Source: Candidatus Wolfebacteria bacterium
GTDB taxonomy: Bacteria > Patescibacteriota > Minisyncoccia > Phycocordibacterales > NVSU01
Direction of reading: 5' to 3'
Assembly (NCBI GenBank): GCA_002401345.1
Contig: NVSU01000004.1
Location: forward strand, 628-51,107
Length of the DNA: 50,480 nt
Part shown: one piece after another, positions 1-45,382 of the stretch
How positions within the stretch are numbered: position 1 is the first letter of the stretch
Layout: each line of letters opens with the position of its first letter
Notes under the pieces: generated by a model
Databases searched by the model: none
What the model was told of the DNA's origin: nothing
The model's input: the letters and a program-made list of their open reading frames with translations, nothing else
Translations under genes and position numbers: made by a program

Positions 1-678
1 ATATTCCGGAAGAACCTTGAATACAATTATGAGTGCAGTTAGTATTGCAAAACCACACAAGATTGACGCGACACCGGTACGTGTAACTGTTATAAAAATA
101 TACACCACTGTAGCTGGAACAATAAAGGCTGCATACGCAACTGCCAACCAATAGAGCGCTTTATTTTTCTTATTGTTCTTGTCACGCATGTGAAAGAAAA
201 TCATTGAGATTCCTATAATCAAAAATAGTAAATAATATGCACTGTGCAATAATTTATAGGAACCTAATGAATCAAATATGACAAAATTTCCTGTACATGA
301 TGTTGATATAAATATATCTGGAACAAAAATGATTATAAGTGAAAGAATCACCGCAATGATATACCCTATTTTTGTCCATATAGTTTTTTTAGTTATAAGT
401 GATATTAGGTGTACTCCTAGTATCGGCAGAAACGCTATACTTATAAATGCAATTTTTGACCAGAGGAGTGGTTGAACACCTTTACAGATTAAATATTCAG
501 ATAGCTGAAAAATTCCAAGGATGAATAATAGTAATGCAGAAAGACGACCAAACAAATTCATTCGATATTTTATGATGACATACAGTGCTAACACTATCTC
601 TATAATGAACGTGAGCAGCGTGACTAAGGGAGTGAAACAATATAATGTTATTGAGTTATTTTTCTTAGAACATTTCAT
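1..678 (-). CDS. Multi-pass membrane protein (HisKA_7TM-like N-terminal domain), 3' end off the window
   Basis: Manual translation from ATG at 678: MKCSKKNNSITLYCFTPLVTLLTFIIEIVLALYVII...FQLSEYLIC...VLPEY. The frame is open to base 1 with about 7 hydrophobic segments. Absent from the ORF track because it has no stop in the window. Confidence 0.7.
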   Translation of the reverse strand, partial: MKCSKKNNSITLYCFTPLVTLLTFIIEIVLALYVIIKYRMNLFGRLSALLLFILGIFQLSEYLICKGVQPLLWSKIAFISIAFLPILGVHLISLITKKTIWTKIGYIIAVILSLIIIFVPDIFISTSCTGNFVIFDSLGSYKLLHSAYYLLFLIIGISMIFFHMRDKNNKKNKALYWLAVAYAAFIVPATVVYIFITVTRTGVASILCGFAILTALIIVFKVLPEY

Positions 679-813
679 CCCGTAGTGAAAAATGACATTG
701 CTCCTTCAAGAGCATGTGAATCAAAATTTAAATTATTTGTAAAGTTTCGAATTACGTTGTTCATATTAAAAATATAGTATCCAACTAATGTCATTTTCTA
801 CTACGGGATTCAT
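674..813 (-). repeat. Family-A inverted-repeat element, copy 1, at the start codon of the 7TM gene
   Basis: Sense strand reads ATGAA-TCCCGTAGTAGAAAATGACATT...AATGTCATTTTTCACTACGGG-ATGAA. The two ATGs (813 and 678) are 135 nt apart. Highly similar to 2193-2332. Confidence 0.9.
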
Positions 814-868
814 CGTATATATTCTATTATACCTTGAAACTTTCAATATCTACTACATACTGTTTCAA

Positions 869-887
869 CCTGTCCTCCTGTGGAGGG
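869..887. repeat. Short palindromic element sharing both ends with the dnaK in-frame insert
   Basis: CCTGTCCTCC-tgt-GGAGGG here versus CCTGTCCTCC-gtagcttttgcaga-GGAGGG at 15890-15919. Confidence 0.5.
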
Positions 888-911
888 AACCTTGTGTGAA
901 TGAAAATAAAA

Positions 912-935
912 AAAGCCCCCACAATGGAGGGCTTT
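912..935 (-). terminator. Intrinsic terminator
   Basis: AAAGCCC(C)CC-acaat-GG(A)GGGCTTT hairpin. The A-run on + is the U-tract on -. Confidence 0.7.
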
Positions 936-961
936 AAAAGTTTCAGATCAGTAGATCTTCA

Positions 962-1240
962 TTAACCAAGTTCAATATGACCTTTTTTGGAATGTATCTC
1001 CTTCCTGAGTTTTTTGCAGTGCCAGTGTTCATATATCAAGAATGGAGTGACAAGAAGCGCTACTACAATAAGACCAGTTGCTTCTGCAGCTTGATCCATA
1101 AACACAACAAGGGCAGCAACGAGACATAATCCAATGACTGCCAAAAGTAATTGATTTCTTGTTTGTTTAGAGTGCTTTAACAATCTATGCAGGCGTGACT
1201 CATTATCTTCTTGTTCTGAATGATTAGGTGATAAATCCAT
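962..1240 (-). CDS. Orphan small membrane protein (2 TM)
   Basis: 92-aa ORF with two hydrophobic helices, its own promoter and terminator. Confidence 0.7.
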   Translation of the reverse strand: MDLSPNHSEQEDNESRLHRLLKHSKQTRNQLLLAVIGLCLVAALVVFMDQAAEATGLIVVALLVTPFLIYEHWHCKKLRKEIHSKKGHIELG

Positions 1241-1282
1241 ATTGTATTTAATTTAATGTTCAAAAATGTAATTTCTACGTGC

Positions 1283-1311
1283 AATATATCACGATATAAG
1301 TCCATTGTCAA
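1283..1311 (-). promoter_or_regulatory. sigma70 promoter
   Basis: TTGACA-17 nt (ending TGA)-TATATT. Confidence 0.7.
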
Positions 1312-1380
1312 CATATCGTAATGGTTCAATAGCTTGGAATCACTTTTAGTAGTAAATTCAAATATATGTCATATAAAAAA

Positions 1381-1404
1381 ATAGTCCTGATTGCTCAGGA
1401 CTAT
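1381..1404 (-). terminator. Intrinsic terminator
   Basis: ATAGTCCTGA-ttgc-TCAGGACTAT preceded by an A-run on +. Confidence 0.75.
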
Positions 1405-1410
1405 AAAGTT

Positions 1411-1947: not shown

Positions 1948-1979
1948 ATTAAAAAACTAAACGGTTTAAATCTTTTTCT

Positions 1980-2064: not shown

Positions 2065-2191
2065 GATCCTGTAGTCCCGACGTCCCTAAAATGTCGGGAG
2101 TCGGGAAGCCGATCGTAGCATCGGCTCTCAGTTTGGTTAGAGTGCATCGTTGACATCGATGAGGTCAGAGGTTCAAGTCCTCTCAGGATCA
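2065..2191 (+). tRNA. tRNA-Val(GAC) interrupted by a 52-nt insertion (2075-2126) between G10 and C11
   Basis: Acceptor GATCCTG/CAGGATC. D-stem G|CTC/GAGT. Anticodon arm CATCG-TTGACAT-CGATG. T arm AGAGG-TTCAAGT-CCTCT. No encoded CCA. Confidence 0.85.
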
Positions 2192-2192
2192 C

Positions 2193-2332
2193 ATGAATCC
2201 CGTAGTAGAAAATAGCATTAGTGGGATACTATATTTTTAATATGAATAACATAATTCGAAACCTTGTAAATAATTTAAATTTCGGTTCACATGCTCTTGA
2301 AGGAGCAATGCCATTTTTCACTACGGGATGAA
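2193..2332 (+). repeat. Family-A element, copy 2
   Basis: ATGAA-TCCCGTAGTAGAAAATAGCATT...AATGCCATTTTTCACTACGGG-ATGAA, 135-nt unit. Confidence 0.9.
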
Positions 2333-2456
2333 TCCCGTTAGAGATCTAAACGCTATGTAGTGGACTTTACAGAGAATCTACAGATATAATAAAAACAATC
2401 AGAATTTATTACGCATTATACGGAAATCTTTGATTTCCTATCTCTAACGGGATGAA
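2328..2456 (+). repeat. Family-A' element in tandem with copy 2
   Basis: ATGAA-TCCCGTTAGAGAT...ATCTCTAACGGG-ATGAA, 124-nt unit with the subterminal hairpin GGAAATC-ttt-GATTTCC. Confidence 0.85.
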
Positions 2457-2550
2457 AATATTAAGTATAGAAACCCCAGTACCTCATCGCTTCGCGCTGG
2501 CTACTCGCCTCGCTAATGCTCTGGCGAAGCGGGCGGGGCAAGAAGTAGTG
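2452..2550 (+). pseudogene. Duplicated tsaD 5' end interrupted by a GC-rich palindromic insert (2474-2538)
   Basis: ATGAAAATATTAAGTATAGAAAC is identical to 2595-2617. After the CCCCAGTA...GGGG insert the sequence resumes with CAAG, as in tsaD. Confidence 0.75.
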
Positions 2551-2594
2551 TTACAGATTAATATAAGAAAATTAGTAAAACACGATTGAACAAC

Positions 2595-3779
2595 ATGAAA
2601 ATATTAAGTATAGAAACAAGTTGTGATGAGACTGCATTAAGTATTATTGATGCAGGTGGTGAGTTAGATGCTCCTACATTCTCAATTCTATCTAATCAAA
2701 TTGCATCTCAAATAGAAATCCATAAAGAATATGGGGGTGTCTTCCCTGCACTTGCCAAACGTGAACATAGCAAAAATATACTACCGCTTTTGGAAAAAAC
2801 TCTGAATGATGCACATGTGATCAACTCTGGTAGCACAACTGTCAATGAAGACGCCCAAAAAAAAGCACATTCTATATTAGAGCGAGAAGATATGCTTTCA
2901 ACACAATTATTAGAATATGTGTCTTCTCATGAGATACCCGACATAGATCTTATAGCAGTCACGTACGGACCCGGTCTAGAACCTGCACTGTGGGTAGGAC
3001 TTAATTTTGCAAAAGCACTTTCAGTGCTATGGAATAAGACGCTTATCCCAGTAAATCATATGGAAGGACATTTGGTGTCTTCTCTACTTTCAATTGACAA
3101 TGATCCTACAGGTATACAAAAAATAAATAAAGTAGAATTTCCTGCGATTTCACTTCTTATTAGCGGTGGACATACGGAATTGGTGTTAGTAAAAAACTGG
3201 ATGGACTACACTATTTTAGGAGAAACTGTTGATGATGCAGTAGGAGAGGCATTTGATAAAGTGGCCCGTATGCTCGAGCTTCCTTATCCTGGTGGACCAG
3301 AAATTTCAAAACTTGCAGAAAAATCATCAACTTCTGATCTTGAAATCACTCTTCCTCGACCCATGATTAACTCAAAAGATTATAATTTTTCATTTTCAGG
3401 TCTCAAGACTGCTGTCTTATATAAACTAAAGGAGTTTCCCGAAATAACTGACGACATTAAAATAACAATTGCAAAAGAATTTCAAAATGCCGCCACTGAT
3501 GTTCTCATTAAAAAAACTATGCGTGCAGCAGATGAATATGGAGCAAAGACGATTCTTGTAGGAGGAGGCGTCGCCGCAAACACCCACATTAGAGAGACAT
3601 TAGAAAATGAGTCTGAAAACAGAGATCTTATGCTCCGTATACCACGAAAAGACATTGCAACGGATAATTCTATAATGATCGGTATGGCAGGATATTTTCG
3701 TTACTTGGGAAGTAAAAATGGGACAATAGATCTTCCTGACCCCCACCCACTTCGCGCCTGTGGGAATTTGGGATTATAA
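2595..3779 (+). CDS. tsaD: tRNA N6-adenosine threonylcarbamoyltransferase
   Basis: MKILSIETSCDET start, GPGL, HMEGH, SGGHT, DDAVGEAFDK, FSFSGLK and DNSIMIG motifs. Start moved to the ATG at 2595. Confidence 0.97.
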   Translation: MKILSIETSCDETALSIIDAGGELDAPTFSILSNQIASQIEIHKEYGGVFPALAKREHSKNILPLLEKTLNDAHVINSGSTTVNEDAQKKAHSILEREDMLSTQLLEYVSSHEIPDIDLIAVTYGPGLEPALWVGLNFAKALSVLWNKTLIPVNHMEGHLVSSLLSIDNDPTGIQKINKVEFPAISLLISGGHTELVLVKNWMDYTILGETVDDAVGEAFDKVARMLELPYPGGPEISKLAEKSSTSDLEITLPRPMINSKDYNFSFSGLKTAVLYKLKEFPEITDDIKITIAKEFQNAATDVLIKKTMRAADEYGAKTILVGGGVAANTHIRETLENESENRDLMLRIPRKDIATDNSIMIGMAGYFRYLGSKNGTIDLPDPHPLRACGNLGL

Positions 3780-4152: not shown

Positions 4153-4348
4153 ATTCTGTGTATTTTAAAGTATTATTTGTTTCAAAAAACTCTATTTATT
4201 CATACAGATAATACTATTCTATATACACACTGTCAAGAATTATCTGTATACGGGAACATAGGAAAACCTATTTTAGGATGTATATATTTTTGAATTATAA
4301 ACCTCTTTTCTTTTGAATAAAGCCTTATATTTTGCTATCATTGAACAC

Positions 4349-7138
4349 ATGAACGATGATAATAAAGCGGACGATCCCAAAAAAGAAACTACATCTAAGT
4401 TCACAGATAAATTCTTAAAACCCTATGATTCCAAGGAAACTGAGGATCGTATATACAAACTCTGGGAGGAGAGTGGCTTTTTTAATCCTGATACCCTTAT
4501 AAAGGAGAATATTATCGATGCTGAGGCTGAGCCCTTCTCTATCGTACTTCCACCACCTAACGTTACGGGAACACTTCACACTGGACATGCTGCAATGCTC
4601 GCAATAGAAGATATAATGGTTCGATTTAATCGAATGAGAGGAAAAAAGGCATTATGGATCCCTGGAACAGACCATGCTGCAATTGCGACTCAATCACTCG
4701 TAGAAAAGCAACTCGCTAAAAAGAAGATACGGAGGCAAGACATAGGTCGTGAGGAATTTCTGAAACACGTTGATGCATTTGCCAGCGAATCACATGACAC
4801 GATCGTAAATCAGATTCGAAAAATGGGTGCGTCTATAGATTGGTCTCGCGAAGCATTTACACTTGATAATACTCGTGAAAAAGCTGTTCGTACTGCATTT
4901 AAAAGAATGTATGATGATGGATTGATTTATCGAGGATATAGAATTGTAAACTGGGATCCCAAGGGCCAAACAACTATTTCAGATGATGAGGTTCAACACG
5001 AGGACAGAAAGGCACACATGTATACCTTTAAATATTCTAAAGACTTCCCTATCTCAATTGCGACCACACGACCCGAAACAAAAGTTGGTGACACTGCTGT
5101 GGCAGTTCATCCTGATGATGACCGATATAAAAAATATATTGGTAACACCTATGAACTCGAATTTGCAGGTGTTCCCCTTTCAATACAAATTGTAGGAGAT
5201 GATAAAGTTGATCCAGAATTTGGAACTGGAGCAGTAGGAGTAACTCCTGCTCATAGTATGACCGACTGGGAAATAGCTCAGCGACATGACCTTCCAATGA
5301 AACAAGTGATCAATGAGTATGCAAAGATGATGGTAGATGCGCCAGAGCTCAAGGATAAGAAAACTACTGAGGCGAGGGAGATCATTGTGAAATGGCTCAC
5401 TGATGAGGAACTTCTCGAACATACAGAAGAAGTAGATCAAAGTATTTCTGTGGCTGAGCGTACAAATGGAATTATTGAGCCAATACCTAAATTACAATGG
5501 TTTATAGACGTACATAAAGAATTTACTCTCGCTAATTCACATATAGATGGAATAAAATCTGGTCAAAAGACATCACTAAAGGAGCTTATGCTTACTGTTG
5601 TTAAAAATGATCAAATCAAGATCATTCCCGAAAGATTTGAAAAAACATATTTTCATTGGATAGAAAATCTGCGTGACTGGAATATCTCGCGACAAATCTG
5701 GTATGGCCACAGAGTTCCTGTATGGTATGACAAGGATGATGCTATTCATCTTCAAGAGGAACATAACATTATTTTCATACGTCATGGACAAAGTGAAACT
5801 AATGCGAGTGGGATTATTGCAGGAAATACCGACACACCATTAACAGATAAGGGGCGAGCACAAGCACAAGATGAAGTTAAAAGCTTAAAGGAACGTAACA
5901 TTACGAAAATTATCTCCTCTGATCTAAGTCGATCAAAAGAAACCGCTGAGATTATAGGGCGTGAACTCGGCATTAAAGTTGAGTCATGGTGTGAATTGCA
6001 CGAAGTTGATGCAGGAGATATTCAAGGTACATTTAAGGATCCTGAAAATCATTTTCTACAAAGGGCACAAGATGCACACACAGGTGAAACATTAGAACAA
6101 ATTGAATATCGTGCGCGATTAATTATTGAGAAACTAAAATCTCTCAATGAAACTGGAAATGTACTTGTCGTCGGTCATGATGCATTTATTGCAATGATAT
6201 TTGGCGTGTGGAACAATGTTCCCAAAGAACGACTTATGGACCATATAAATAGCTGGAAGAGCTTGGACAATGCAAAAGGATTGGATGTTCAAATCTTAAC
6301 TGATCCCCAGGGAGAAGATTTAACACAAGACCCTGACACACTTGATACATGGTTCTCTTCTGGACTATGGACATTTTCAACACTCGGATGGCCTTCTCAA
6401 ACTGATGACCTCAAGACATATCACCCAACGAACGTACTGGAAACAGGACATGATTTGCTATTTTTCTGGATTGCACGAATGATTCTTATGACCACATATC
6501 TTCTGGGTGATATCCCCTTTCGAACAGTATACTTCCACGGACTTATTTTAGATAAAGATGGAAAGAAGATGAGTAAGTCTCGACCGGAGACTGCCATTGA
6601 TCCACTCATTGCAATAGAAAAATTTGGTGCTGACGCACTTCGTATGGCTATGATTGTTGGAGTGGGCCCAGGAAGCAGTAACACCCTCTCCGATGAGAAA
6701 ATTAAGGCGTATAAAAAATTTGCAAATAAACTTTGGAATGCAACACGATATGTACTTGAGAGTATAGGGGATTTTGATACGGAACGCACAGTCACACTTA
6801 CAAAGAAGCACGCGTCGTATATAGACGAATTACATGCGCTCGTAAATGAAATAACTAATGAAATGGAAGAATACAAATATTACCTCGTAGCAGAAAAACT
6901 CTATCACTATTTCTGGCATACGTTTGCAGATGTTATTATAGAAGAGAGCAAAGACCTACTTACACATGGTACTGAGGAGGAAAAACTGTCTGCTCACTAT
7001 ACACTTTGGACAATTCTGACCACACTTCTAAAACTACTTCATCCTTTTATGCCGTATGTCACAGAAGAAATTTGGGGAGCACTTCCGCATAACAAAACTC
7101 ATTTATTAATGGTCGAAAAATGGCCAATTCAAAAATAG
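4349..7138 (+). CDS. valS: Valine--tRNA ligase with an inserted histidine-phosphatase domain
   Basis: PPPNVTGTLHTGH, WNISRQIWYGH, DTWFSS and KMSKS motifs, plus an RHG-domain insertion. Start moved to ATG 4349, 7 nt after TG-c-TATCAT. Confidence 0.96.
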   Translation: MNDDNKADDPKKETTSKFTDKFLKPYDSKETEDRIYKLWEESGFFNPDTLIKENIIDAEAEPFSIVLPPPNVTGTLHTGHAAMLAIEDIMVRFNRMRGKKALWIPGTDHAAIATQSLVEKQLAKKKIRRQDIGREEFLKHVDAFASESHDTIVNQIRKMGASIDWSREAFTLDNTREKAVRTAFKRMYDDGLIYRGYRIVNWDPKGQTTISDDEVQHEDRKAHMYTFKYSKDFPISIATTRPETKVGDTAVAVHPDDDRYKKYIGNTYELEFAGVPLSIQIVGDDKVDPEFGTGAVGVTPAHSMTDWEIAQRHDLPMKQVINEYAKMMVDAPELKDKKTTEAREIIVKWLTDEELLEHTEEVDQSISVAERTNGIIEPIPKLQWFIDVHKEFTLANSHIDGIKSGQKTSLKELMLTVVKNDQIKIIPERFEKTYFHWIENLRDWNISRQIWYGHRVPVWYDKDDAIHLQEEHNIIFIRHGQSETNASGIIAGNTDTPLTDKGRAQAQDEVKSLKERNITKIISSDLSRSKETAEIIGRELGIKVESWCELHEVDAGDIQGTFKDPENHFLQRAQDAHTGETLEQIEYRARLIIEKLKSLNETGNVLVVGHDAFIAMIFGVWNNVPKERLMDHINSWKSLDNAKGLDVQILTDPQGEDLTQDPDTLDTWFSSGLWTFSTLGWPSQTDDLKTYHPTNVLETGHDLLFFWIARMILMTTYLLGDIPFRTVYFHGLILDKDGKKMSKSRPETAIDPLIAIEKFGADALRMAMIVGVGPGSSNTLSDEKIKAYKKFANKLWNATRYVLESIGDFDTERTVTLTKKHASYIDELHALVNEITNEMEEYKYYLVAEKLYHYFWHTFADVIIEESKDLLTHGTEEEKLSAHYTLWTILTTLLKLLHPFMPYVTEEIWGALPHNKTHLLMVEKWPIQK

Positions 7139-9846: not shown

Positions 9847-9875
9847 TTTGTGTCCCCGGACTGAGTCGAACAGTC
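9847..9875. repeat. 29-bp direct repeat of the tRNA-Arg 3' end (att-like), partner of 11012-11040
   Basis: TTTGTGTCCCCGGACTGAGTCGAACAGTC is identical at both sites. Confidence 0.9.
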
Positions 9876-9899
9876 TAGCTCGATCAAGTTTGATATAAA

Positions 9900-9923
9900 A
9901 AAGCACGGATTACTCCGTGCTTT
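9900..9923 (-). terminator. Intrinsic terminator
   Basis: AAAGCACGGA-ttac-TCCGTGCTTT with an upstream A-run on +. Confidence 0.75.
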
Positions 9924-9936
9924 AAAGCTATTATTT

Positions 9937-10917
9937 CTATTTTCTTGGTTGAATTGGCATTACATCACTATATGCAATGTCATATTTCTCAAGAAGTTCG
10001 TCAAGTTCATTCATAGACTTTGAACCAAAATTTCTCATTCCTAAATATTCATGTCTAGGAAAAGACGCAATATGACCTAAAGAAATATTTCCAAGGCTTC
10101 GAATTCCATAATAGCGCAAGATGACTGCCCGAATACAATTACTTAATCTGACAGACACATCAAGTTCCAATAATGATTTAGAAAGAACTTTTATCTTGTC
10201 ATCTCCAAGACCTTGCTTCGATTTATCAGTCTCTTCCTTTGATTGATATTGAAGCAATTTTTGTTCAAGTTTATTAATAATTTGTCCTTGCAGTCTAACT
10301 TTTTCACAATACTCTTTATACTGTAACATTCGTTCATCGAATCTTCTCATTTTATATATTACATACCTTAAACCTTTCTGAAATATTTGACGAACTCGTT
10401 CACTCGTAAGATCAAATTTTTCAGAAATCTCGTCAAAAGTATTATTCTCAAATAAGACTAAATACAAGACTTCATCTTGTCTTGAAAAACGAGACTGTTC
10501 ATTAAGAAAAACTTTTTTGAATAGATCTTGAAAAAATTCAAGTTTTTCAATTCTGTCATGAAATCCTGTATACCATGTAAGTTTAAATTTCATATATTCC
10601 TCTGTCTCATTTCTCACAAATAAAAGTTTTGAACCCCTTTTATTTGATAAACGAAGATGAGGAAATTTATCTTTGAGGCAAAGATTTCTAATCGTTGACA
10701 TGCTAATGCCAGTTAGTACATACACCTCATCAATCAACAATAACGGTTCATCTAATGACACTTTTAATTTCTTCTCAAGTTTATCTTTGTCAATAAATAA
10801 TTTATTTCCTTCATATACAGGTTTAGGTAAAACTCCTTTTTGTATATATCTTGAAATAGAACTCTTATTATGTTGGATAAGAGTTGCAACTTCATCAAGT
10901 GAGAGCATATTGTTCAT
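9937..10917 (-). CDS. Putative transcription regulator: two excisionase-like HTH domains, sigma70 region 4 and an RNAP alpha-CTD-like domain
   Basis: MLSLDEVATL...ISRYIQKG; LLIDEVYVLTGISMSTIRNL; TFDEISEKFDLTSERVRQI; ELDVSVRLSNC...RNFGSKSMNEL. Confidence 0.75.
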   Translation of the reverse strand: MNNMLSLDEVATLIQHNKSSISRYIQKGVLPKPVYEGNKLFIDKDKLEKKLKVSLDEPLLLIDEVYVLTGISMSTIRNLCLKDKFPHLRLSNKRGSKLLFVRNETEEYMKFKLTWYTGFHDRIEKLEFFQDLFKKVFLNEQSRFSRQDEVLYLVLFENNTFDEISEKFDLTSERVRQIFQKGLRYVIYKMRRFDERMLQYKEYCEKVRLQGQIINKLEQKLLQYQSKEETDKSKQGLGDDKIKVLSKSLLELDVSVRLSNCIRAVILRYYGIRSLGNISLGHIASFPRHEYLGMRNFGSKSMNELDELLEKYDIAYSDVMPIQPRK

Positions 10918-11015
10918 TTCCTTTTATTTTAAAGTTCACTATAGTAATCTGTATTCTACACAATATAATACCATCATTATCATATAGAATCAAATATAAA
11001 ATTTTCTATTTTTTG

Positions 11016-11119
11016 TGTCCCCGGACTGAGTCGAACAGTCAGCTGCTCCTTAGGAGGGAGCCGTTTTATCCATTAAATCCCGACGTTACAGTCGGGACCC
11101 CGACCTTGCGTCGGGGCTA
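11016..11119 (-). pseudogene. Disrupted tRNA-Arg(CCT) with a 39-nt hairpin insertion after G10 and no adjacent 5' acceptor strand
   Basis: TAG|CCCCGACgcaagGTCGGGG TCCCGACtgtaacGTCGGGA|TTTAATGGATAAAAC-G-GCTCC-CTCCTAA-GGAGC-agct-GACTG-TTCGACT-CAGTC-CGGGGAC-A. Confidence 0.75.
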
Positions 11120-11124
11120 TACTA

Positions 11125-11212
11125 TGCCCTCATCAGGAATCGCCTCTCCCCGACTCAATATTTCATATTTCGCTGGACTGCGTTTTGTATTCAATCATTT
11201 CACCACGAGGGC
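11125..11212 (-). pseudogene. Degenerate tRNA-like sequence
   Basis: GCCCTCG...TGAGGGC-A acceptor-like pairing. The last 18 nt are identical to the 3' end of the tRNA-Arg at 11407. The anticodon arm is unrecognisable. Confidence 0.45.
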
Positions 11213-11359
11213 ACTTCTTATTTCTTAGATTATTTCACTCCCAAAGAAATAAAGTCGCATTCTTGAACAAAACGGGAGCCGCTGGTCGAAATCCACAATT
11301 TATATATTCACTATGTTCATTATAAATTGGGACCTTCGGTTCTCATCTAGGAGTCACTG

Positions 11360-11406: not shown

Positions 11407-11478
11407 TGCCCTCATCAGGAATCGAACCTAAATCTAGTCCTTAGGAGGGACTTGTTTTATCCATTAAACTATGAGGGC
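11407..11478 (-). tRNA. tRNA-Arg(CCT), intact
   Basis: Acceptor GCCCTCA/TGAGGGC. D-stem GTTT/AAAC. Anticodon arm AGTCC-CTCCTAA-GGACT. T arm TTAGG-TTCGATT-CCTGA. Confidence 0.93.
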
Positions 11479-28868: not shown

Positions 28869-30029
28869 TTATTCAATAATCCCCCCTCCAAGACACACCT
28901 CTCCGTCATAGAGCACGAGAGATTGTCCTGGGGACACGATTGTTGGCTCTTTAAACTCTACCGACACAGTAGTATCATTTATAGTTTTTATTTCGCAGGG
29001 AATCATTTTTCCTAAGTGGCGAATTCGACCACTGTATTCCTTATTAATCTGTGGAATATAATTTACTATCCAATTTACATCTATAAGAGAAACTATATTA
29101 TCAGTTGATTTGTTTTTATGTAGTAATTTATTCTCAGATACAGTTAATGTATTTGCATGCATATCCTTAGCTATAATATAAAGCGGCTTATCATTCGTTC
29201 CTTTTTTGATAATGGTAAACCCATGTCGCTCCCCTAATGTATAAAACAATACTCCTGTGTGATACCCAATAATTTCGCCATGTTCATTCAATACATCTCC
29301 CCTTTTTTCCTTGATATAGTGTTTGAGAAAATCTTTCATATCTAGCTTTCCAAGAAAACACACCCCCTGGCTATCTTTTTTCTTGTACGTCGGCAATTCA
29401 AATTTTTCTGCCAATTTTCGAACATGATCTTTCTCTATGTCACCAATGGGAAATATAATATGTGGAAGTTGATCTTGAGAAAGTGTCCACAGAAAATAGC
29501 TCTGATCTTTTTTAGGATCCCGACCTGTCAAAAGTAAATTTCCCTCTTTAGTAATTTTGTTTCTTGCATAATGTCCCGTCGCAACATAATCAGCTCCCAT
29601 TGAAAGGGCCTTATCATAAAATGCTCCAAATTTTACATGCTTATTACACATCACGTCTGGATTAGGAGTATTCCCCTTTGAGTACTCATCTATCATATAG
29701 TCAGCAACTTCTTTTTTATAAATATCCTCAAAATCAAATTCCAGGAACGGAATATCCAAGTGTGCCGCAACTCTGATCGCATCACGTCTGTCATCTCGCC
29801 ATGTGCACCCTATTCTCCTCTGTAGATCAACTTGAAGGAAATCTGGCTGCCATACGCGAATAAAAACACCAACGACCTCATAGCCTTGTTTTTTCAATAA
29901 TGCAGCCGATACTGAAGAATCCACCCCTCCTGAGAGCCCTACAAATACAGTTTTCCTATCTGCCGTCTGATACGAGCCTCGCCCCTGGCGGGAGGCAGGC
30001 AGATTTTTTTTCGATTTTATATTAAACAT
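28869..30029 (-). CDS. mnmA: tRNA 2-thiouridine synthase
   Basis: SGGVDSS, TPNPDVMCN, ATGHY, KDQSYFL, KKDSQGVCF and PGQ motifs. Confidence 0.97.
   Translation of the reverse strand: MFNIKSKKNLPASRQGRGSYQTADRKTVFVGLSGGVDSSVSAALLKKQGYEVVGVFIRVWQPDFLQVDLQRRIGCTWRDDRRDAIRVAAHLDIPFLEFDFEDIYKKEVADYMIDEYSKGNTPNPDVMCNKHVKFGAFYDKALSMGADYVATGHYARNKITKEGNLLLTGRDPKKDQSYFLWTLSQDQLPHIIFPIGDIEKDHVRKLAEKFELPTYKKKDSQGVCFLGKLDMKDFLKHYIKEKRGDVLNEHGEIIGYHTGVLFYTLGERHGFTIIKKGTNDKPLYIIAKDMHANTLTVSENKLLHKNKSTDNIVSLIDVNWIVNYIPQINKEYSGRIRHLGKMIPCEIKTINDTTVSVEFKEPTIVSPGQSLVLYDGEVCLGGGIIE
29955..30003 (-). repeat. In-frame GC-rich palindromic insert in the mnmA 5' end
   Basis: tCTGCCTGCC-tcccgccaggggcgaggctcgtatcagac-GGCAGATAGg encodes NLPASRQGRGSYQTADR just before KTVFVGLSGG. 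Confidence 0.7.
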
Positions 30030-30646: not shown

Positions 30647-30680
30647 GATTTATTTTCTTATGAGCGGAGTGAATTTGAAA

Positions 30681-30755
30681 ATCATCACCCTGTGAAATAA
30701 TCTGCATAAGACAGATTAATTTTCTTCTCTTAAAAGAAAATCATTTCACTGGGGT
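30681..30755 (-). repeat. Family-B structured leader element, copy 1
   Basis: Sense ACCCCAGTGAAAT-[2 hairpins]-ATTTCACAGGGT-GATGAT, 34 nt before the ATG. Confidence 0.85.
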
Positions 30756-38383: not shown

Positions 38384-38414
38384 GATAGATTAAAACGAGT
38401 GAAGTGAGTATTTA

Positions 38415-38483
38415 ATCATCACCCTGTGAAATCTTTTGCTACATGCAAAAGAAAAAATCTTTGATTTTTTATTTCACTGGGGT
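38415..38483 (-). repeat. Family-B structured leader element, copy 2 (mreB leader)
   Basis: Sense ACCCCAGTGAAAT...ATTTCACAGGGT-GATGAT, 31 nt before the ATG and downstream of the promoter TTGACA-16-TAAAAT (38524-38551). Confidence 0.85.
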
Positions 38484-38606: not shown

Positions 38607-39281
38607 ATGATAGAATTATTTTTATTTTTTATTATTCTTGTTATTGGAATAGTAAGCACAGCCTTATGGTTTCAAGAAACACACGTTATCGCACCTGTAA
38701 GCACTCTGTCTCTTGATAAACGTATCGTCTCACGAAAAAAAATGAGCCAGTGGACTCCAAGGAATCATGTACTCATTGAATTTCTTCCAGTCGTGCACGC
38801 TCATCTCATGAATACAAACGTACATGCAGTGCTCGAGAAATTGGGATATAGAATGCTCTCAGAGAGAGAAAAATATATTATCAGAAAGCAATATTCATAT
38901 GAATCAAGCTTTACTAACTTTATCGTTGTATTTCCGCACAAAAAAGGATCGAACTTACATACGAGTGGTATCTCGTGCATACAGTGGACTGAAAATGGTG
39001 TCACGTATACCAGTGATGCATCTCGACATAACATTCAGTGTGTAATGAGAATGAAAAAATACATTCTTAAAGACTCTTTGGTGAATTCATTCTATGTAGG
39101 TGTCACGAGGAATAAAACGACACTATGGACAACAATTCTTGATCGCACGTATGATATCAAAGTAGCACTGTCTGCTTTATTAATTTTCATTAAAAATAAA
39201 GCCCAAAAAGCTCTCACACAGAGAGCTTTTTTTTATATCCCTGTGATACACTTAGGGCATGAATCCCGTAGTAGAAAATGA
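38607..39281 (+). CDS. Orphan hypothetical protein with an N-terminal TM; 3' end doubtful
   Basis: 224-aa ORF that reads through a terminator-like hairpin (39206-39233) and stops inside family-A copy 3. Confidence 0.5.
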   Translation: MIELFLFFIILVIGIVSTALWFQETHVIAPVSTLSLDKRIVSRKKMSQWTPRNHVLIEFLPVVHAHLMNTNVHAVLEKLGYRMLSEREKYIIRKQYSYESSFTNFIVVFPHKKGSNLHTSGISCIQWTENGVTYTSDASRHNIQCVMRMKKYILKDSLVNSFYVGVTRNKTTLWTTILDRTYDIKVALSALLIFIKNKAQKALTQRAFFYIPVIHLGHESRSRK

Positions 39282-39397
39282 CATTATGGGAACATCATAG
39301 TGTATGTATTGTAGTAAGTCGAAATTGTATAAGTAATTAATAATATGTGGCATACATGCTCCTTAAAGAGCGATGTCATTTTTCACTACGGGATGAA
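39259..39397 (+). repeat. Family-A element, copy 3, at the priA start
   Basis: ATGAA-TCCCGTAGTAGAAAATGACATT...GATGTCATTTTTCACTACGGG-ATGAA, 134-nt unit with a divergent interior. Confidence 0.9.
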
Positions 39398-41354
39398 AAT
39401 AGTTAGTGTAATTCCATATTCTAAGGGGATTCACAAGGAAACGCTCACCTATTTCAGTTCAAAAGATATTCCTGTGGGAAGTATTGTGACTGTTCCTGTG
39501 AGAAAAAAACTTGTGACCGCATTTGTGACTGAGTCTAAAGATCTTCTCAAGGCAAAGTCTGATGTGAAGTCATCCTCGTTTAATTTAAAAAAAGTTGATT
39601 CGATTGTTGGGCCTTCTCTGTTTAATCAGGAGTTCTTTTACACCGTACGTGACCTTAAAAAATATTATGCGACTCATTCAAGTTTACTGTTTAGTTCCCT
39701 CATTCCAACACTCTTTCTAAAAAAGTACGCACAACTTACGCTTCCTCATATTGCTTCAGAAAAAAGTACCTCGTCTATACGACAAGAAAAATTATTATTC
39801 CAATCTCCTGATGAGGAACGATTGAGTTACTACAAAACCTATATTCGTGAATCATTTGCAAAAGGTGAGTCGCTTTTTATATGTCTTCCAAATAGTAATG
39901 ACATACAAACTTTTCTTCCAATAATTAGCAAAGGGATCGAACAATATGTATTTGTGCTTCATGGTGCCCTTACAGATAAAAAACAAATTGAGGTCTATAA
40001 TAAACTTATTGATGAAACACACCCTGTGGTAATTATCGCAACAGGGTCATATCTCTTTGTTCCACGCAATGATATTGGAACTATCATTGTTGAGCGAGAA
40101 AGTTCATCTACATATAAAACATTCACACGTCCCTATATTGACATGCGAATCGTTGCTGAAATCTATTCTCACTATTTAAATGCCAAGCTCATATACGCAG
40201 ATACATATTTACGAACGGAGACACTGTGGAGACATGATCAAAACGAGTTCTCTGAAGTAGATCAATTTAATTTTAGACCACCTATTCAATTGAAACATCC
40301 TATTATAGATGTAAGAAAAAATATTAAAGACGAACCACAAAAAAAATCTAAAAAATTCTCGGCATTAAATGATGAAGTACTTCAACTTATACACACTGCA
40401 TTAAAAGAAAATAGGAAAATATTCCTCTTTGTACTCCGGAAAGGTCTCGCGGGGATAACGGTCTGTAACGACTGTGGAACAGCAGTACTTTGTGAATCGT
40501 GCTCGGTACCAATGACACTTTTCAATCAGAAAAATAAGATCACCCATAAAGGCAAAAAAGAAAGCATATTCATATGTAATAAATGTAGAGCAGTTAAGAG
40601 AACAAATGTGATATGTAAAGAATGTGATAGCTGGAATCTCGTATCACTTGGAATTGGAATTGAAAGCGTACTAAAGGAAGTCAAGAATGAATTTAGTGAT
40701 GCCAAAGTATTTGTAATTGAAGGTGAAACTGTGAAGACAAAAACTCAGGGTAAAAAAATTATCTCTGAGTTTAATTCATCCACCAATGGAATACTTGTGG
40801 GGACCGAAATGGCACTTTCATATATAAATGAGAAAGTTGATGAGAGTGTGGTGGTCTCATTTGATTCATTGTTCTCAATTCCGGGGTTTAGAATTAATGA
40901 AAGGGTTCTCAAACTTCTTACTTCTCTTTCCTCAATTTCTAAAAACTCGGTACGTATACAAACCAAGAATCCTGATGAATCAATTCTTACACATATTCAA
41001 GAGAGGACCATGGTTGATTTTTTCAGAGAAGAATTAAAGCTGAGAAAACAATTCAACTATCCTCCTTTTTCGACACTTATTAAAATCAGTTTCAGTGGAA
41101 ATACAAAAGATGTAGAAAAAGCTCATGATATGTTTCATACATTATTTAATTCATACCCCCTTGAACTATTCAGGTCAGTTATTACCAAAGGTAAGCGCTT
41201 GCATGCTATACACGCAATACTCAGAATTGATCGATCTACATGGGCACTCCCCTCACGTGGTACTAAAGGCGAGCTCGACACATTGCTTCTCGAAAAACTC
41301 ATCTCTCTCCCTCCTTCATATATAGTACATATCGATCCAGAGGATCTGTTGTAA
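39393..41354 (+). CDS. priA: Primosomal protein N' (divergent helicase motifs)
   Basis: MKIVSVIP...LTY...GSIVTVP N-domain, four CxxC pairs, GIE, ILVGT, YPPF and the C-terminal IDPEDLL. Confidence 0.88.
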   Translation: MKIVSVIPYSKGIHKETLTYFSSKDIPVGSIVTVPVRKKLVTAFVTESKDLLKAKSDVKSSSFNLKKVDSIVGPSLFNQEFFYTVRDLKKYYATHSSLLFSSLIPTLFLKKYAQLTLPHIASEKSTSSIRQEKLLFQSPDEERLSYYKTYIRESFAKGESLFICLPNSNDIQTFLPIISKGIEQYVFVLHGALTDKKQIEVYNKLIDETHPVVIIATGSYLFVPRNDIGTIIVERESSSTYKTFTRPYIDMRIVAEIYSHYLNAKLIYADTYLRTETLWRHDQNEFSEVDQFNFRPPIQLKHPIIDVRKNIKDEPQKKSKKFSALNDEVLQLIHTALKENRKIFLFVLRKGLAGITVCNDCGTAVLCESCSVPMTLFNQKNKITHKGKKESIFICNKCRAVKRTNVICKECDSWNLVSLGIGIESVLKEVKNEFSDAKVFVIEGETVKTKTQGKKIISEFNSSTNGILVGTEMALSYINEKVDESVVVSFDSLFSIPGFRINERVLKLLTSLSSISKNSVRIQTKNPDESILTHIQERTMVDFFREELKLRKQFNYPPFSTLIKISFSGNTKDVEKAHDMFHTLFNSYPLELFRSVITKGKRLHAIHAILRIDRSTWALPSRGTKGELDTLLLEKLISLPPSYIVHIDPEDLL

Positions 41355-42932: not shown

Positions 42933-43096
42933 AAGTCCACGCGTATGCGGGACTTTTTTATTTGTGTCTTAAATTCTTAAGACACCTAGTTATTCACGGA
43001 TTACTTAATCTCAAGATATATGACCATGCTATACTTATGGATAAGAAGAAGAAAAATTACCCGTCACATTTGGATTTAATTTTTTTCACGTAAACC

Positions 43097-44263
43097 ATGG
43101 CAAAAAACATCTCAGTTGGTATCGATATCGGGACTCAAACCACTCGCGTAGTGGTTGTTGAATATGTAAAAGGAAAACCTGTGCCCCGAATACTTGGAAC
43201 TGGTAAAAGTGAATCACAGGGACTCAGACAAGGATATATTCATGATTACGAAGCAACAATCGAAAGCATAAAAAAAGCTGTCGCAGAGGCGGAAAAAAAC
43301 GCAGGGGTCACTATTAAAAAAGCATTTGTATCGATTGGGGGAATATCTCTTACTTCTGAGATGGGTCATGGCTATTCAATAATTTCCCGTGGAGATAAAG
43401 AAGTCACTGAGCTCGATATCAACAAAGCAATACACGAAAGTGAGGATGCTATTGATATTAGTAATAAAAAGATTATTCATGTGATTCCCGTAACGTACAA
43501 ACTCGATGGAAATGAAGTACTTGGAAATCCTGAAGGAATGCAAGGAATAAAACTTGAAGTGAAAACTCTTTTTGTGACTGCGATGGAGCGTCATATAGAA
43601 AATCTACTCGGTGCACTCGCTGAGGCAGGTATTGATGTTCAGGATGTGATTGCGGCTCCTATTGCAGCGAGTATGGTTGCGCTTACTGAAAAGCAAAAAT
43701 CTGTGGGGTGTATTTTGATTGATATTGGGGCAGAAACAGTTGAAATTGCAGTATTTGAAAATGGTACAGTATTATCACTTCAAGTCTTCCCTATTGGATC
43801 AATGGATATCACAAATGACATCGCACTTGGATTTAAAATTCCCCTTGAAGACGCAGAAAAATTGAAACGCGGGAATATTGTAGGTGAGTTCCCTAAAAAG
43901 AAATTACAAGAAATTATCACTGCACGCGCAACTGATATATTTGAATACGTAGAAGCGCATCTTAAAAAAATAAAAAGAAACGGACTGCTTCCTGCAGGTG
44001 TAATCATCACTGGAGGTGGATCAAATATTTTAGAAATTGAAGAGCTTTCAAAAAAGATTCTCAGGCTTCCCTCAAGAAAAGGTAATGCACTCATCTTCCA
44101 GGCTAAAAAAGGAAGTGGTGATGCGTCATGGCTTGTTGCACTTGGCTTATGTGTAGTTGGACGAAGATTCTATGATCAGGACTATACACAAGAGACTCTC
44201 TCAAAAACTTTTTCTGGAATTAAGAAATTCTTTAAATCACTTTCTAAACAACTCTTACCATAG
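43097..44263 (+). CDS. ftsA: Cell division protein FtsA
   Basis: GIDIGT, SQGLRQG.I, IDIGAET, GSMDITNDIA and ITGGGS motifs. Confidence 0.95.
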   Translation: MAKNISVGIDIGTQTTRVVVVEYVKGKPVPRILGTGKSESQGLRQGYIHDYEATIESIKKAVAEAEKNAGVTIKKAFVSIGGISLTSEMGHGYSIISRGDKEVTELDINKAIHESEDAIDISNKKIIHVIPVTYKLDGNEVLGNPEGMQGIKLEVKTLFVTAMERHIENLLGALAEAGIDVQDVIAAPIAASMVALTEKQKSVGCILIDIGAETVEIAVFENGTVLSLQVFPIGSMDITNDIALGFKIPLEDAEKLKRGNIVGEFPKKKLQEIITARATDIFEYVEAHLKKIKRNGLLPAGVIITGGGSNILEIEELSKKILRLPSRKGNALIFQAKKGSGDASWLVALGLCVVGRRFYDQDYTQETLSKTFSGIKKFFKSLSKQLLP

Positions 44264-44270
44264 TAAAAAT

Positions 44271-44299
44271 TCCACTTAGACGTCCGACGTCTAAGTGGA
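44271..44299. repeat. Near-perfect palindrome (REP-like or terminator)
   Basis: TCCACTTAGACGTC-c-GACGTCTAAGTGGA, 14-bp arms with a 1-nt centre. Confidence 0.8.
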
Positions 44300-44319
44300 T
44301 TTTTAAAATAGGAAATAAA

Positions 44320-44346
44320 AAAGCGCTGGAAATTTTCCAGCGCTTT
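44320..44346 (-). terminator. Terminator of the orphan gene
   Basis: AAAGCGCTGGAAA-t-TTTCCAGCGCTTT with an A-run on +. Confidence 0.75.
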
Positions 44347-44351
44347 GCGAT

Positions 44352-44417
44352 GCCCCGTACCGAACTTCCTAGAGCGTCCGAACCACTCGGAGTAGCTTAC
44401 TCTGGTACTTGGAGTGC
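44352..44417. repeat. GC-rich structured element (family C) in the orphan 3' UTR
   Basis: GCCCCGTACC...GGTACttGGAGtGC. Ends resemble the CCCCAGTACC...TACT/GGGG insert at 2474-2538. Confidence 0.5.
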
Positions 44418-45164
44418 TTAAGCCATTTTTTCATGCAATTCAGGAATCCACTCACCTGACCATGATGTTAAATAGTCAGCACCTTTTCTACTTAACACAT
44501 GCAAAGAATTATCGCGCCCATACATGACAACTGAAAAGGCAAATCTATCACTTCGTTTTTGCTTTCTTCCAAATCTTTCCTCATAATAATCAATTGCATT
44601 TGAAAAAAAGCCGCTATGTACCTTTGCGTTAGCAACGGCTTCTATAAAAACAGAAAAGAGATTGAAGTTTATATTACAGAATCTCGCAACATATTCCACA
44701 AATTGTGGATGTGTGACCTTGATATTATGTAAGGCCAATTGTTCGATGATAAATATGGTCATATTCAACTGCTCATCTCTTAAACTATTCGTAATATCTA
44801 ACTCAGTAAGTTTTTCAGTAAAAATAGAAATAACTATTTCATCTCTTCGTTCCTGTGCCTTGTCTGACAATATCCCCTTTTTCTCTTCAGTCAGTTCGAA
44901 ACTGAATATATTTTTTAACAGAGAAATTCGAGGATGAGAAACTTTAGTAATAAAAAGTTTATAAATCTCTATCCTTTTTTTATTGTCGCTAATCTTATCG
45001 ATAACGATAAATTTTTTATCATTAAATAAAAAGTTGCCAAGAACGTGCAAAAATTTTTTATCTCTGTACACATCGAGTGATTCAAGTAGTTTTTTTAAGT
45101 AGGAATATAATTCATCTTCCGAATACTTTAGTACTTCCTTCAGGCGAAATGGTTCTCGTTTCAT
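44418..45164 (-). CDS. Orphan hypothetical protein between ftsA and ftsZ
   Basis: ATG start at 45164. Promoter TTGACA-17-TATATT at 45205-45233. Own terminator. Confidence 0.7.
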   Translation of the reverse strand: MKREPFRLKEVLKYSEDELYSYLKKLLESLDVYRDKKFLHVLGNFLFNDKKFIVIDKISDNKKRIEIYKLFITKVSHPRISLLKNIFSFELTEEKKGILSDKAQERRDEIVISIFTEKLTELDITNSLRDEQLNMTIFIIEQLALHNIKVTHPQFVEYVARFCNINFNLFSVFIEAVANAKVHSGFFSNAIDYYEERFGRKQKRSDRFAFSVVMYGRDNSLHVLSRKGADYLTSWSGEWIPELHEKMA

Positions 45165-45322
45165 ATTAGAATTATTAAAGTTCAACGGTATTATTACCAA
45201 CTACAATATATCATGTTATTAGTGATTTGTCAAATATATCACATAGGTATTTGTTTTTTTGATAATTCTGGTATCATAGAGGCATATAATAATCAAAGGA
45301 GGTTTAGATAATCAATATTTTT

Positions 45323-45382
45323 ACCCCAGTGAAATAGCGACTTCGTCGCTTCTTGCTACACAAGATTTCACGGGGTGATGAT
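45323..45382 (+). repeat. Family-B structured leader element, copy 3 (ftsZ leader)
   Basis: ACCCCAGTGAAAT-AGCGACttcGTCGCT-t-CTTGctacaCAAG-ATTTCACGGGGT-GATGAT, 37 nt before the ATG. Confidence 0.85.

Follow-up and report, generated by a model that had tools for sequence, protein, structure and literature searches.

Repeat families A and A' and their architecture

The stretch of DNA analysed here (the window, 50,480 nucleotides) belongs to an 897-kb Candidatus Wolfebacteria genome, a draft of 24 contigs in which many contig ends fall in repeats. The first family A element of the window (674..813, minus strand) carries a gene-side ATGAA (674-678) whose ATG starts ORF 1..678, which reaches 363 aa on the contig. 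The second (2193..2332, plus strand) lies directly 3' of a tRNA-Val, and its right ATGAA is common with the following family A' element (2328..2456, plus strand), forming a stack; the right ATGAA of the latter (2452-2456) opens a first copy of the tsaD 5' end. The third A element (39259..39398, plus strand) contributes through its left arm the final codons of ORF 38607-39281, including its stop (39279-39281), and its right ATG (39393) starts an ORF of 653 aa. This last gene is priA-like and is not dnaK. All four A/A' sites of the original prediction are thus occupied, the one at 2328 by A' and the others by A.

Genome-wide, A is present in 18 copies of about 140 nt (139-143 nt), and A', of about 125 nt, is represented by 19 gene-side ends; both have terminal inverted repeats of about 25 nt. 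On both sides of A there is a 5-bp direct repeat composed of a start codon and two further nucleotides, mostly ATGAA but also ATGGA, ATGTA or GTGAA, the flanking 5-mers being identical in 17 of the 18 copies. The reading frame of the left ATG holds stop codons in 15 of the 18 copies, indicating that the A interior is non-coding. As was predicted, a small hairpin adjoins one arm on its inner side, in 34 of the 36 A copies examined and with many compensating stem variants, and A' has a similar inner hairpin. Copies of A and A' stack head to tail, up to three units, and nesting is also present, in agreement with the initial observation. Since each element brings a new ATGAA at its end, further copies stack there. 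An internal motif can also pair with the right arm, to give a terminator-like stem with a T run after it, and promoter-like sites within A/A' elements are not more frequent than in shuffled sequence.

The gene-facing end of A/A' is always the inner-hairpin end, and the orientation of A is fixed in 18/18 copies of the host genome and in 18/18 copies from other genomes. Such a fixed orientation cannot come from sequence preference alone.

Insertion at start codons and translation in the host

Six of the 18 gene-side ends of A adjoin another element and the remaining 12 all open ORFs of 164-653 aa. For A', four of the 19 ends are stacked and, of the 15 unstacked ones, 12 open an ORF of 134 aa or more; the three left over adjoin the duplicated tsaD start (one) and ORFs of 34 and 26 aa (two). 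Altogether, 24 of the 27 unstacked ends adjoin an ORF of at least 134 aa, compared with a genome background where an ORF of 130 aa or more follows 9.5% of the 12317 ATGNA sites. The placement of A/A' is therefore far from random, as had been claimed. The targeted genes have no function in common and, after insertion, each gene is still opened by its own ATG, directly at the element end. Start codons are an unusual target choice for mobile DNA.

It had been proposed that essential genes tolerate these units because they fold out of the RNA or are excised. Examination of the host translation signals points elsewhere. The 3' end of the host 16S rRNA is devoid of CCTCC, i.e. of an anti-Shine-Dalgarno tail, and, whichever upstream position is considered, SD-like motifs occur at no more than 8 of 622 gene starts. 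The -10-like boxes are most frequent 6-7 nt upstream of the ATG, and many host genes look leaderless. A previous study likewise describes the anti-SD motif as missing in some Parcubacteria (PMC9297842). Because the host has neither the anti-SD tail nor SD motifs, the ATG rebuilt by the target duplication would suffice for tolerance, and RNA excision of A/A' would not be needed. An intron-like or self-cleaving removal that keeps interrupted tRNAs and genes functional could be invoked from the good folding of these units (z = -4.1 for A at 39259) and from the inserts within a tRNA D-arm. It nevertheless seems very improbable, since A/A' lie outside ORFs, which makes removal unnecessary, and no Rfam match was obtained with gathering thresholds over the whole window, nor with E up to 5 over 600-2700; the tRNA inserts, described below, do not require it either.

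According to this scheme, displacement of the upstream sequence would cost little in a host lacking an SD system. The inserted element would become a 5' hairpin on the mRNA, which could be trimmed by RNase III, whose gene is present in the host genome, or else be read through from the upstream ATG. On the other hand, translation should be impeded by a 25-bp stem that reaches the ATG, and this counts against insertion at start codons as the best explanation.

A good -10 box is found 5-9 nt upstream in 9 of 24 left flanks versus 116 of 625 gene starts overall, which only weakly suggests that A/A' target leaderless transcription starts. The yeast Ty3, a retroelement of eukaryotes that Pol III factors direct to transcription start sites, offers a parallel, in that the first bases of a transcription unit, and not a long DNA sequence, set the place of insertion. 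However, Ty3 has its Pol III guidance, whereas for A/A' the link to transcription starts is weak.

Mobility of A and A' and candidate mobilisers

The repeat end of A was detected in 34 of 401 genomes of the order, against a single match for a reversed control pattern. The architecture described above recurs in 18 elements from 17 other genomes, and their direct repeats follow the target (ATGGA three times, ATGTA, GTGAA). Of these, 16 adjoin an ORF, which has 104 aa or more in 15 cases and never less than 29 aa, and two adjoin another element. Comparison of orthologous loci in one related genus revealed clean empty sites at two loci. At locus 1, the element lies between two TTCAT copies in one species, and two other species have a single TTCAT; no convincing -10 box is seen at leaderless distance in these empty sites. 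At locus 2, one species is empty, and the same start codon carries A in a second species and an A'-like element in a third. An assembly or binning artefact could be suspected in a 24-contig draft with many contigs ending in repeats, but it is practically discounted by contigs from two runs of one study that span the region with identical sequence, by an independent run contig from a second study that is identical over 1835-2173, and by the same architecture in 33 other genomes.

That A and A' are non-autonomous DNA transposons (MITEs) is supported by their inverted-repeat ends, by the 5-bp target duplications and by orthologous sites that are empty in some species and filled in others, and this part of the original prediction stands. 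We consider it probable that the window contains several unrelated small-repeat families, not one system, and that A/A' are MITEs inserting at start codons via a 5-bp target duplication. An enzyme making 5-bp staggered cuts would move them, and their start-codon bias and fixed orientation could reflect either target choice or the survival of only such copies.

Similar elements are the Correia (CREE) elements of Neisseria, bacterial MITEs of about 100-150 nt with inverted-repeat ends of about 25 nt and no ORF, which also make target duplications, exist in many copies with insertion polymorphism between relatives, adjoin genes and form a long RNA stem. A/A' differ by their 5-bp duplication of start codon plus two nucleotides, where Correia elements duplicate TA, by an end that abuts the ORF exactly and by the fixed orientation of A; moreover, we know of no parent insertion sequence for A/A'. 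According to PMC2649163, CREE can give rise to promoters, and RNase III can bind or cleave them.

A possible though clearly less likely reading is that A, A' and B chiefly serve the host as cassettes for regulation (as mobile 5' leaders, promoters or attenuators), like REP2 of Neisseria or the IR repeats of Borrelia, and that selection for this function, not target choice, keeps them before genes and sets their position and orientation. The fixed orientation, the inner hairpin kept through compensating changes and the potential terminator-like stem are in line with it, as are the location of B before housekeeping genes and the covariation in two B stems. Furthermore, in one species the native upstream region is absent beside an A copy, and the 20-nt A end hardly varies between families of the order, in contrast with the divergent interiors; such constancy could equally reflect a host-level function. 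As described in PMC3184786, the Neisseria REP2 and Borrelia IR repeats lie immediately upstream of genes, bring a promoter, an RBS and the ATG fused to the ORF, and have internal stem-loops; REP2 is without inverted-repeat ends, and its way of spreading is given there as unknown. A/A' share with these repeats the position directly upstream of genes, the starting ATG and the internal stem-loops, but differ from REP2 by inverted-repeat ends, target duplications, empty sites and a host without an SD system. Family B comes closer to REP2. Against regulatory cassettes, target duplications, stacks of up to three, nesting and different elements on one start codon in sister species are typical of selfish transposition, the targeted genes lack a common function, and a conserved promoter was not detected across genomes.

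No mobiliser for A/A' was found and, as predicted, none lies within the window; no longer copy with A ends exists among the regions examined. The IS30-like insertion sequence of the window (49375..50480, minus strand; HTH_38 and rve domains, multicopy) has ends unlike those of A, A' and B, in agreement with the prediction. Mobilisation by Y1 (HUH) transposases, with A/A' as REP/REPIN or IS200/IS605-derived units inserting 3' of a fixed pentanucleotide in single-stranded DNA, appears unlikely. Y1_Tnp is the only one of three transposase families tested that is present in all five A-rich genomes examined (rve is missing in 4/5 and DDE_Tnp_1 in 3/5), A has subterminal hairpins, and one-orientation insertion relative to a pentanucleotide is a property of the IS608 mechanism. 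However, both flanking 5-mers of A vary with the target, as fits a duplication but not an element-borne end, and A/A' have long inverted-repeat ends. Y1_Tnp is common with or without A (27 of 34 A-positive genomes and 209 of 367 others), and is missing from three A-rich genomes (G183, G028 and G235).

In addition, the RAYT-like Y1 gene of the host is flanked by its own 25-27-nt palindrome. This true REP/RAYT example has 10 palindrome copies genome-wide, one of them in the window (44272..44298, no strand assigned). A, A', B and C have no sequence in common with it and reach 4-6 times its length, and A/A' differ further by their target duplications; REP/RAYT is not supported as the model for A/A' or B. 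Another copy lies inside the Y1 gene and is read in frame. This is reminiscent of the Rickettsia palindromic elements, small palindromic repeats inserted in frame into ORFs and tolerated in essential genes, as is the repeat in mnmA (see below), whereas A/A' are not translated into protein, the left-ATG frame of A being stopped in 15 of the 18 copies.

Family B leaders, tRNA hairpins and single units

Family B, with 14 copies genome-wide, is a repeat that forms a structured 5' leader and ends at an ATG. The copies predicted at 30681, 38415 and 45323 were all recovered, at 30647..30755 (minus strand), ending at the ATG of a DEDDh exonuclease gene (30095-30646), at 38384..38483 (minus strand), ending at that of mreB (37373-38383), and at 45323..45419 (plus strand), ending at that of ftsZ (45420). 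Housekeeping genes preceded by B include fusA-like, rpsN-like, ftsZ, mreB, nusA-like, ndk-like and rplL. The mreB copy has in common with A' the core AAATC-TTT-GATTT, as had been noticed, with 70% identity over 40 nt. Among the 401 genomes, B occurs in 24, of which 4 also carry A against about 2 expected, so the distribution of B is independent of A. Their ends and junction rules differ as well. The initial observations largely hold, but not their reading as a single superfamily.

The CCCGAC/GTCGGG hairpins predicted in two tRNAs are indeed present. The interrupted tRNA-Val(GAC) (2066..2192, plus strand) contains, after G10, about 49 nt (2076-2124) in which CCCGAC-type hairpins are accompanied by a second, degenerate copy of the tRNA 5' end. 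It is probably a pseudogene and, as tRNA-Val(TAC) is present elsewhere in the genome, may be dispensable. The second case is a tRNA-Arg-like pseudo-copy (11016..11140, minus strand), with a CCCGAC hairpin pair (11079-11115) after a TAG; beside it lies a fragment duplicated from the 3' part of the intact tRNA-Arg(CCT) nearby (11407-11478). Other hairpin-bearing tRNA pieces adjoin intact tRNA-Lys and tRNA-Thr and, in other genomes, Met, Arg(GCG) and Arg(CCT). Since tRNA 5' fragments bearing the hairpins adjoin intact tRNAs, these hairpin pairs are not introns. A 1.1-kb insert (9847..11040, minus strand) has the same 29 nt of a tRNA 3' end on either side, as exact direct repeats (9847-9875 and 11012-11040), and carries an ORF (9937-10917) with HTH_17, sigma-70 region 4 and RNAP alpha-CTD-like domains.

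The C-type element (2475..2594, plus strand), a GC-rich hairpin followed by an AT-rich tail, sits 23 nt into tsaD, between a 23-nt duplicate of the ORF start (2452..2474, plus strand) and the true start at 2595. Like the CCCGAC hairpin pairs, it is a cassette with a 17-23-nt duplication of a tRNA or ORF 5' end at its flanks, C duplicating the first 17-23 nt of an ORF. The predicted family C stands in so far as this unit has one partial genomic relative (85% over 74 nt) and a look-alike in another genome. The inverted repeat at 44352..44412 (no strand assigned), between convergent genes, shares only an end motif of about 9 nt with C, is single-copy and cannot be shown to belong to the family. 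Of the predicted in-frame inserts, that in dnaK is not found, the ORF (15794-17719) being collinear with E. coli DnaK over residues 1-594. The one in mnmA (28869-30029) is a unique GC-rich inverted repeat (29958..30004, minus strand), which makes up codons 9-24 and precedes the Pfam domain.

Start-codon elements of families A and A'

The window covers bases 628-51107 of contig 3 of the source genome, an 897-kb draft in 24 contigs with a G+C content of ~36%, and its genes are ordinary housekeeping ones (tsaD, leuS, cysS, dnaK, mnmA, mreB, a priA-like gene, ftsA and ftsZ). The small genome and the features described below are in keeping with uncultured ultra-small bacteria. Self-comparison of this genome, G000, revealed 343 repeated intervals, together 78.7 kb, which include an IS30-like element and many repeats of 40-400 nt. 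Transposons in genes are normally removed by selection. The elements located on start codons are a real and striking feature of this genome: in family A, the start codon itself is the landing site and is repaired by the duplication.

Family A is represented by 18 full copies in G000, three of them within the window, with a mutual identity of 72-94%. The copies are 139-143 nt long, with inverted-repeat ends of 23-28 nt (91-100% complementarity) and a non-coding interior carrying stops in the frame of the left ATG in 15 of 18 cases. Identical 5-mers flank 17 of the 18 copies, namely ATGAA in 16 and ATGGA in one, and the remaining copy has ATAAA versus ATGAA. When all copies are co-oriented, the right-hand ATG leads into another element in six cases and opens an ORF of 164-653 aa in the other 12, including murG-like and gltX-like starts. 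The shorter A' elements behave similarly. Among their 19 gene-side ends, four are stacked and, of the 15 that are not, 12 open ORFs no shorter than 134 aa; the remaining ones lie at the duplicated tsaD start and at ORFs of 34 and 26 aa (a twentieth match to the A' regular expression, being the far end of a reverse-strand copy, was left out). By comparison, 9.5% of the ATGNA sites in G000 (1175 of 12317) are followed by an ORF of 130 aa or more. The non-random placement claimed in the original prediction is thus borne out, since all 12 unstacked A ends open ORFs. Behind one A' copy on contig 16 (~57250-57334, minus strand), the ORF reaches a TGA after 26 codons, past which membrane-protein-like sequence carries on in frame.

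The same elements are found beyond the source genome. A 20-nt A end, with one mismatch allowed, was detected in 34 genomes among the 401 sampled from the order, representing 26 of 223 genera, with up to 47 matches in a single genome; the reversed control pattern gave one match in total across the 401 genomes. Eighteen elements from 17 other genomes share the build of A in G000, including the small inner hairpin on the gene side in 18/18. Their flanking 5-mers are mostly ATGAA, with ATGGA in three, ATGTA in one and GTGAA in one, and the gene-distal copy has decayed in three of the 18. Sixteen adjoin an ORF and two adjoin another element; 15 of these 16 ORFs are of at least 104 aa and one, given as a lower bound, is of at least 29 aa.

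To compare orthologous sites, two loci were followed in four congeneric species. The first locus is filled in one species, where TTCAT stands on either side of the element; in two others the sequence is uninterrupted and contains TTCAT once (ATGAA of the gene in reverse complement). At the second locus, the site is empty in one species and holds A in another, while in a third the very same start codon bears an A'-like element distinct from A; every filled site has a duplicated 5-mer. Since empty sites have a single 5-mer and filled ones a duplicated 5-mer, these comparisons show that the flanking 5-mer is a true target duplication. Together with the presence of two elements on one start codon, the contrast between empty and filled sites also shows that the elements moved after these congeneric species split and that one start codon was struck independently. 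The clean empty and filled sites at both loci of this genus agree with the mobility originally proposed. Within the source population, no clean empty-site joint of the elements was found in the DNA contigs, and the joints seen within 703-789 and 2332-2438 stem from other copies that cross-map. As a separate case, an A element on contig 8 of genome G238 (locus L063, ~2470-2635 in locus coordinates) has a small CCCGTAGCGAGC..GCTCTGCTACTGGG hairpin nested within it and is flanked, as a whole, by a TCCAT duplication.

Host translation and the cost of insertion

The 3' end of the G000 16S rRNA gene (contig 6, 49932-51426, outside the window) does not contain the CCTCC anti-Shine-Dalgarno motif, and loss of this motif in part of Parcubacteria is described in PMC9297842. 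Indeed, Shine-Dalgarno-like words occur at any upstream position in at most 8 of 622 crude gene starts, while -10-like hexamers peak 6-7 nt before the ATG (70 genes versus ~10 per position elsewhere). Since such a host does without Shine-Dalgarno-based initiation and the ATG is regenerated, an insertion that displaces only upstream DNA should be mild. The elements would provide a clean natural example of mobile DNA on essential genes (murG-, secY-, priA- and gltX-like) at a cost expected to be little, with their tolerance tied to the host's loss of Shine-Dalgarno-based initiation.

Several properties of the elements offer leads to their effect on the expression of the downstream gene. The full element is predicted to form a long stem ending at the ATG (-41.7 kcal/mol, z = -4.1), and G000 has an RNase III gene. 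In three copies, an upstream reading frame crosses the element and ends at a TGA overlapping the ATG of the gene. An inner motif is also predicted to pair with the right arm, giving a terminator-like stem followed by a T run. Promoter-like sites inside the elements are no commoner than in shuffled sequence. The elements raise the question of how genes are expressed without Shine-Dalgarno sites and, for gene calling in ultra-small genomes, they are a source of false upstream ATGs and false C-terminal extensions.

Family B, tRNA cassettes and the choice of target

Family B, a structured 5' leader repeat, has 14 copies in G000. Its hairpin consists of an 11-nt inverted repeat closing around two short hairpins of variable sequence, preceded at 6-9 nt by -10-like boxes and followed by a conserved 40-45-nt segment with its own stem, which ends at an ATG in 11 of the 14 copies; outside G000, 10 of 13 copies end at an ATG. 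Compensating changes are seen in both stems, in G000 as well as in other genomes. Among the genes that follow B are ftsZ, mreB, one for a DEDDh exonuclease, rplL, and fusA-, rpsN-, nusA- and ndk-like genes. Long outer inverted repeats of B, suspected by eye, were not retained, local alignment having beaten shuffled controls in one copy of 14, that of ftsZ. At ruvA, B is present in one species, and in three congeners the ATG is instead preceded at a few bases by a -10 box, so B is gained or lost. The original prediction had gathered all these units into a single superfamily. A and B as one shared system were rejected on their distribution across 401 genomes: the B junction motif occurs in 24 genomes and A in 34, and they share four versus ~2 expected.

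The tRNA cassettes are CCCGAC..GTCGGG hairpin pairs, found at eight loci after the TAG ending at G10 of a tRNA 5' fragment; their junction motif is present in 4 of 41 relatives. At tRNA-Lys and tRNA-Thr, an intact tRNA is preceded by this 5' fragment, the 6-8 tRNA bases that follow it and a spacer. Two other genomes have the same layout ahead of tRNA-Met, tRNA-Arg(GCG) and tRNA-Arg(CCT). The interrupted tRNA-Val(GAC) of the window (2066-2192) has a degenerate second 5' copy, with tRNA-Val(TAC) present elsewhere in G000, and the Arg-like copy (11016-11140) adjoins an intact tRNA-Arg(CCT). Rfam gave no match for A, A' and the C unit, either at gathering thresholds over the whole window or with E up to 5 in 600-2700, and none for B and the tRNA cassettes at gathering thresholds. 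Tolerance of the tRNA inserts as intron-like elements, as originally supposed, is contradicted by these data: intact tRNAs adjoin the fragments and no intron or ribozyme family was matched in Rfam. The cassettes are not introns, which, whether group I or of the archaeal bulge-helix-bulge type, would interrupt the sole functional gene copy and have a recognised splice structure. The in-frame dnaK insert of the same prediction was likewise rejected. Two further features lie outside the window: a CCCGAC hairpin pair directly 5' of an apparent RNase P RNA gene (GAGGAAAGTCCG motif) on contig 23 (~2935-2990), and, on contig 8 (~100-370), an insert of ~170 nt after tRNA-Leu(TAG), flanked by a 17-18-nt duplication of the 3' end of this tRNA.

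The C unit in tsaD (2475-2594) is flanked by a 23-nt duplication starting at the ATG, and a look-alike in rpsL of another genome has a 17-nt duplication (15/17 identical) that likewise starts at the ATG. The TsaD protein encoded at 2595-3779 exceeds the usual length by ~55 aa and has an additional segment of ~35 aa ahead of the conserved GPG motif, with no DNA palindrome beneath it.

The placement at start codons may come from target choice or from survival. A good -10 box lies 5-9 nt upstream in 9 of 24 left flanks versus 116 of 625 gene starts overall; leaderless transcription starts are not claimed as the target, since this ~2-fold enrichment is too weak. It is possible that a strong ATGRA preference is combined with retention of only those copies correctly placed before a gene. 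The fixed orientation argues for some factor in addition to sequence preference. Three unrelated element types have in common that the inserted DNA ends at +1 of the unit, that is, the A of the ATG or nucleotide 1 (+/-2) of the mature tRNA, and the stretch from +1 is duplicated upstream over 5 nt (A/A'), 17-23 nt (C-type) or ~17 nt (tRNA cassettes). Since the inserted DNA ends at +1 in all three types, insertion might be tied physically to those bases of the gene that are transcribed or translated first, an idea that we regard as improbable. The integration machinery would then be guided by promoter-bound RNA polymerase or nascent 5' RNA, not by DNA sequence, and such coupling, if true, would be a bacterial counterpart of Ty3-like start-site targeting.

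Known systems and the search for a mobiliser

Inverted repeats, target duplication, small non-coding interiors and site polymorphism are all found in A and A', as in MITEs, with the exception of a known parent element. IS200/IS605-derived elements, in contrast, make no target duplication and have a constant, element-borne right end, whereas the 5-mers of A/A' co-vary with the target: besides ATGAA, the paired 5-mers are ATGGA/ATGGA in five copies, ATGTA/ATGTA in one and GTGAA/GTGAA in one. REP2-type repeats end in the ATG of the downstream ORF, as do A/A' and B, and fusion to the ATG is described for Neisseria REP2 and Borrelia IR repeats (PMC3184786). A/A' differ from both by their inverted-repeat ends and by the target duplication established at orthologous sites. 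Rickettsia palindromic elements are translated within the host protein, whereas A/A' are located 5' of the ORF and carry stops; the sole unit read in frame is the unique mnmA repeat. The terms "start codon" and "initiation codon" did not occur in the searched text of a 2024 review of prokaryotic MITEs (PMC10969869). A literature search covering main texts outside subscription journals found no paper on such elements in these bacteria and no start-codon-specific MITE.

In REP/REPIN systems with a RAYT, the repeat flanks the Y1 gene, whereas A, A' and B do not flank that of G000 (contig 12, 1262-1903). The latter is flanked by its own palindrome of 25-27 nt, unlike A, A' and B, with 10 copies in G000 including one in the window (44272-44298). 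Gene and palindrome form a REP/RAYT pair of the classical kind that has no relation to A, A' and B. Another of the 10 copies (contig 12, 1437-1463) is read in frame within this Y1 gene.

The search for a mobiliser covered both element ends and protein domains. No parent IS with A ends was obtained, the ends of the IS30-like element being different, as had been noted initially, and no further multicopy transposase was found in G000, where the products of long multicopy regions are kinases and surface proteins. In the A-richest genome, six regions contain no long A-ended element, only short or nested ones of up to 310 nt, and a scan of viral contigs for A ends gave one match that looks like chance. 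None of rve, DDE_Tnp_1, Y1_Tnp, RVT_1 and Phage_integrase, each sought in five genomes, tracked the elements, and rve and DDE_Tnp_1 were missing from most A-rich genomes tested. Co-occurrence with Y1/RAYT or reverse transcriptase genes, the association initially sought, did not hold: Y1_Tnp is weakly enriched (27 of 34 A-positive versus 209 of 367 other genomes, 401 in total) but absent from three A-rich genomes, and reverse transcriptase is absent from two. The elements define a search for a new transposase in a large uncultured group.

Other unusual segments were observed in G000. The leuS-like class I tRNA synthetase at 4313-7138 has a histidine-phosphatase domain (His_Phos_1, residues 486-641) mid-synthetase. 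A 1.1-kb segment at 9847-11040 lies between exact 29-nt direct repeats of a tRNA 3' end; its sole ORF has an excisionase-like HTH together with sigma-70 region 4 and RNA polymerase alpha-CTD-like domains, and no integrase was found in the segment. At 11196-11261, 64 nt are swapped for 7 other letters in contigs of the two source runs, a difference due either to variation in the population or to a related repeat that cross-maps. Finally, contigs 14, 15, 19 and 24 may represent strain variants or not belong in this bin, because they have a higher G+C content (0.38-0.445) and carry near-duplicate surface-protein genes as well as the only strong tyrosine-recombinase matches of G000.
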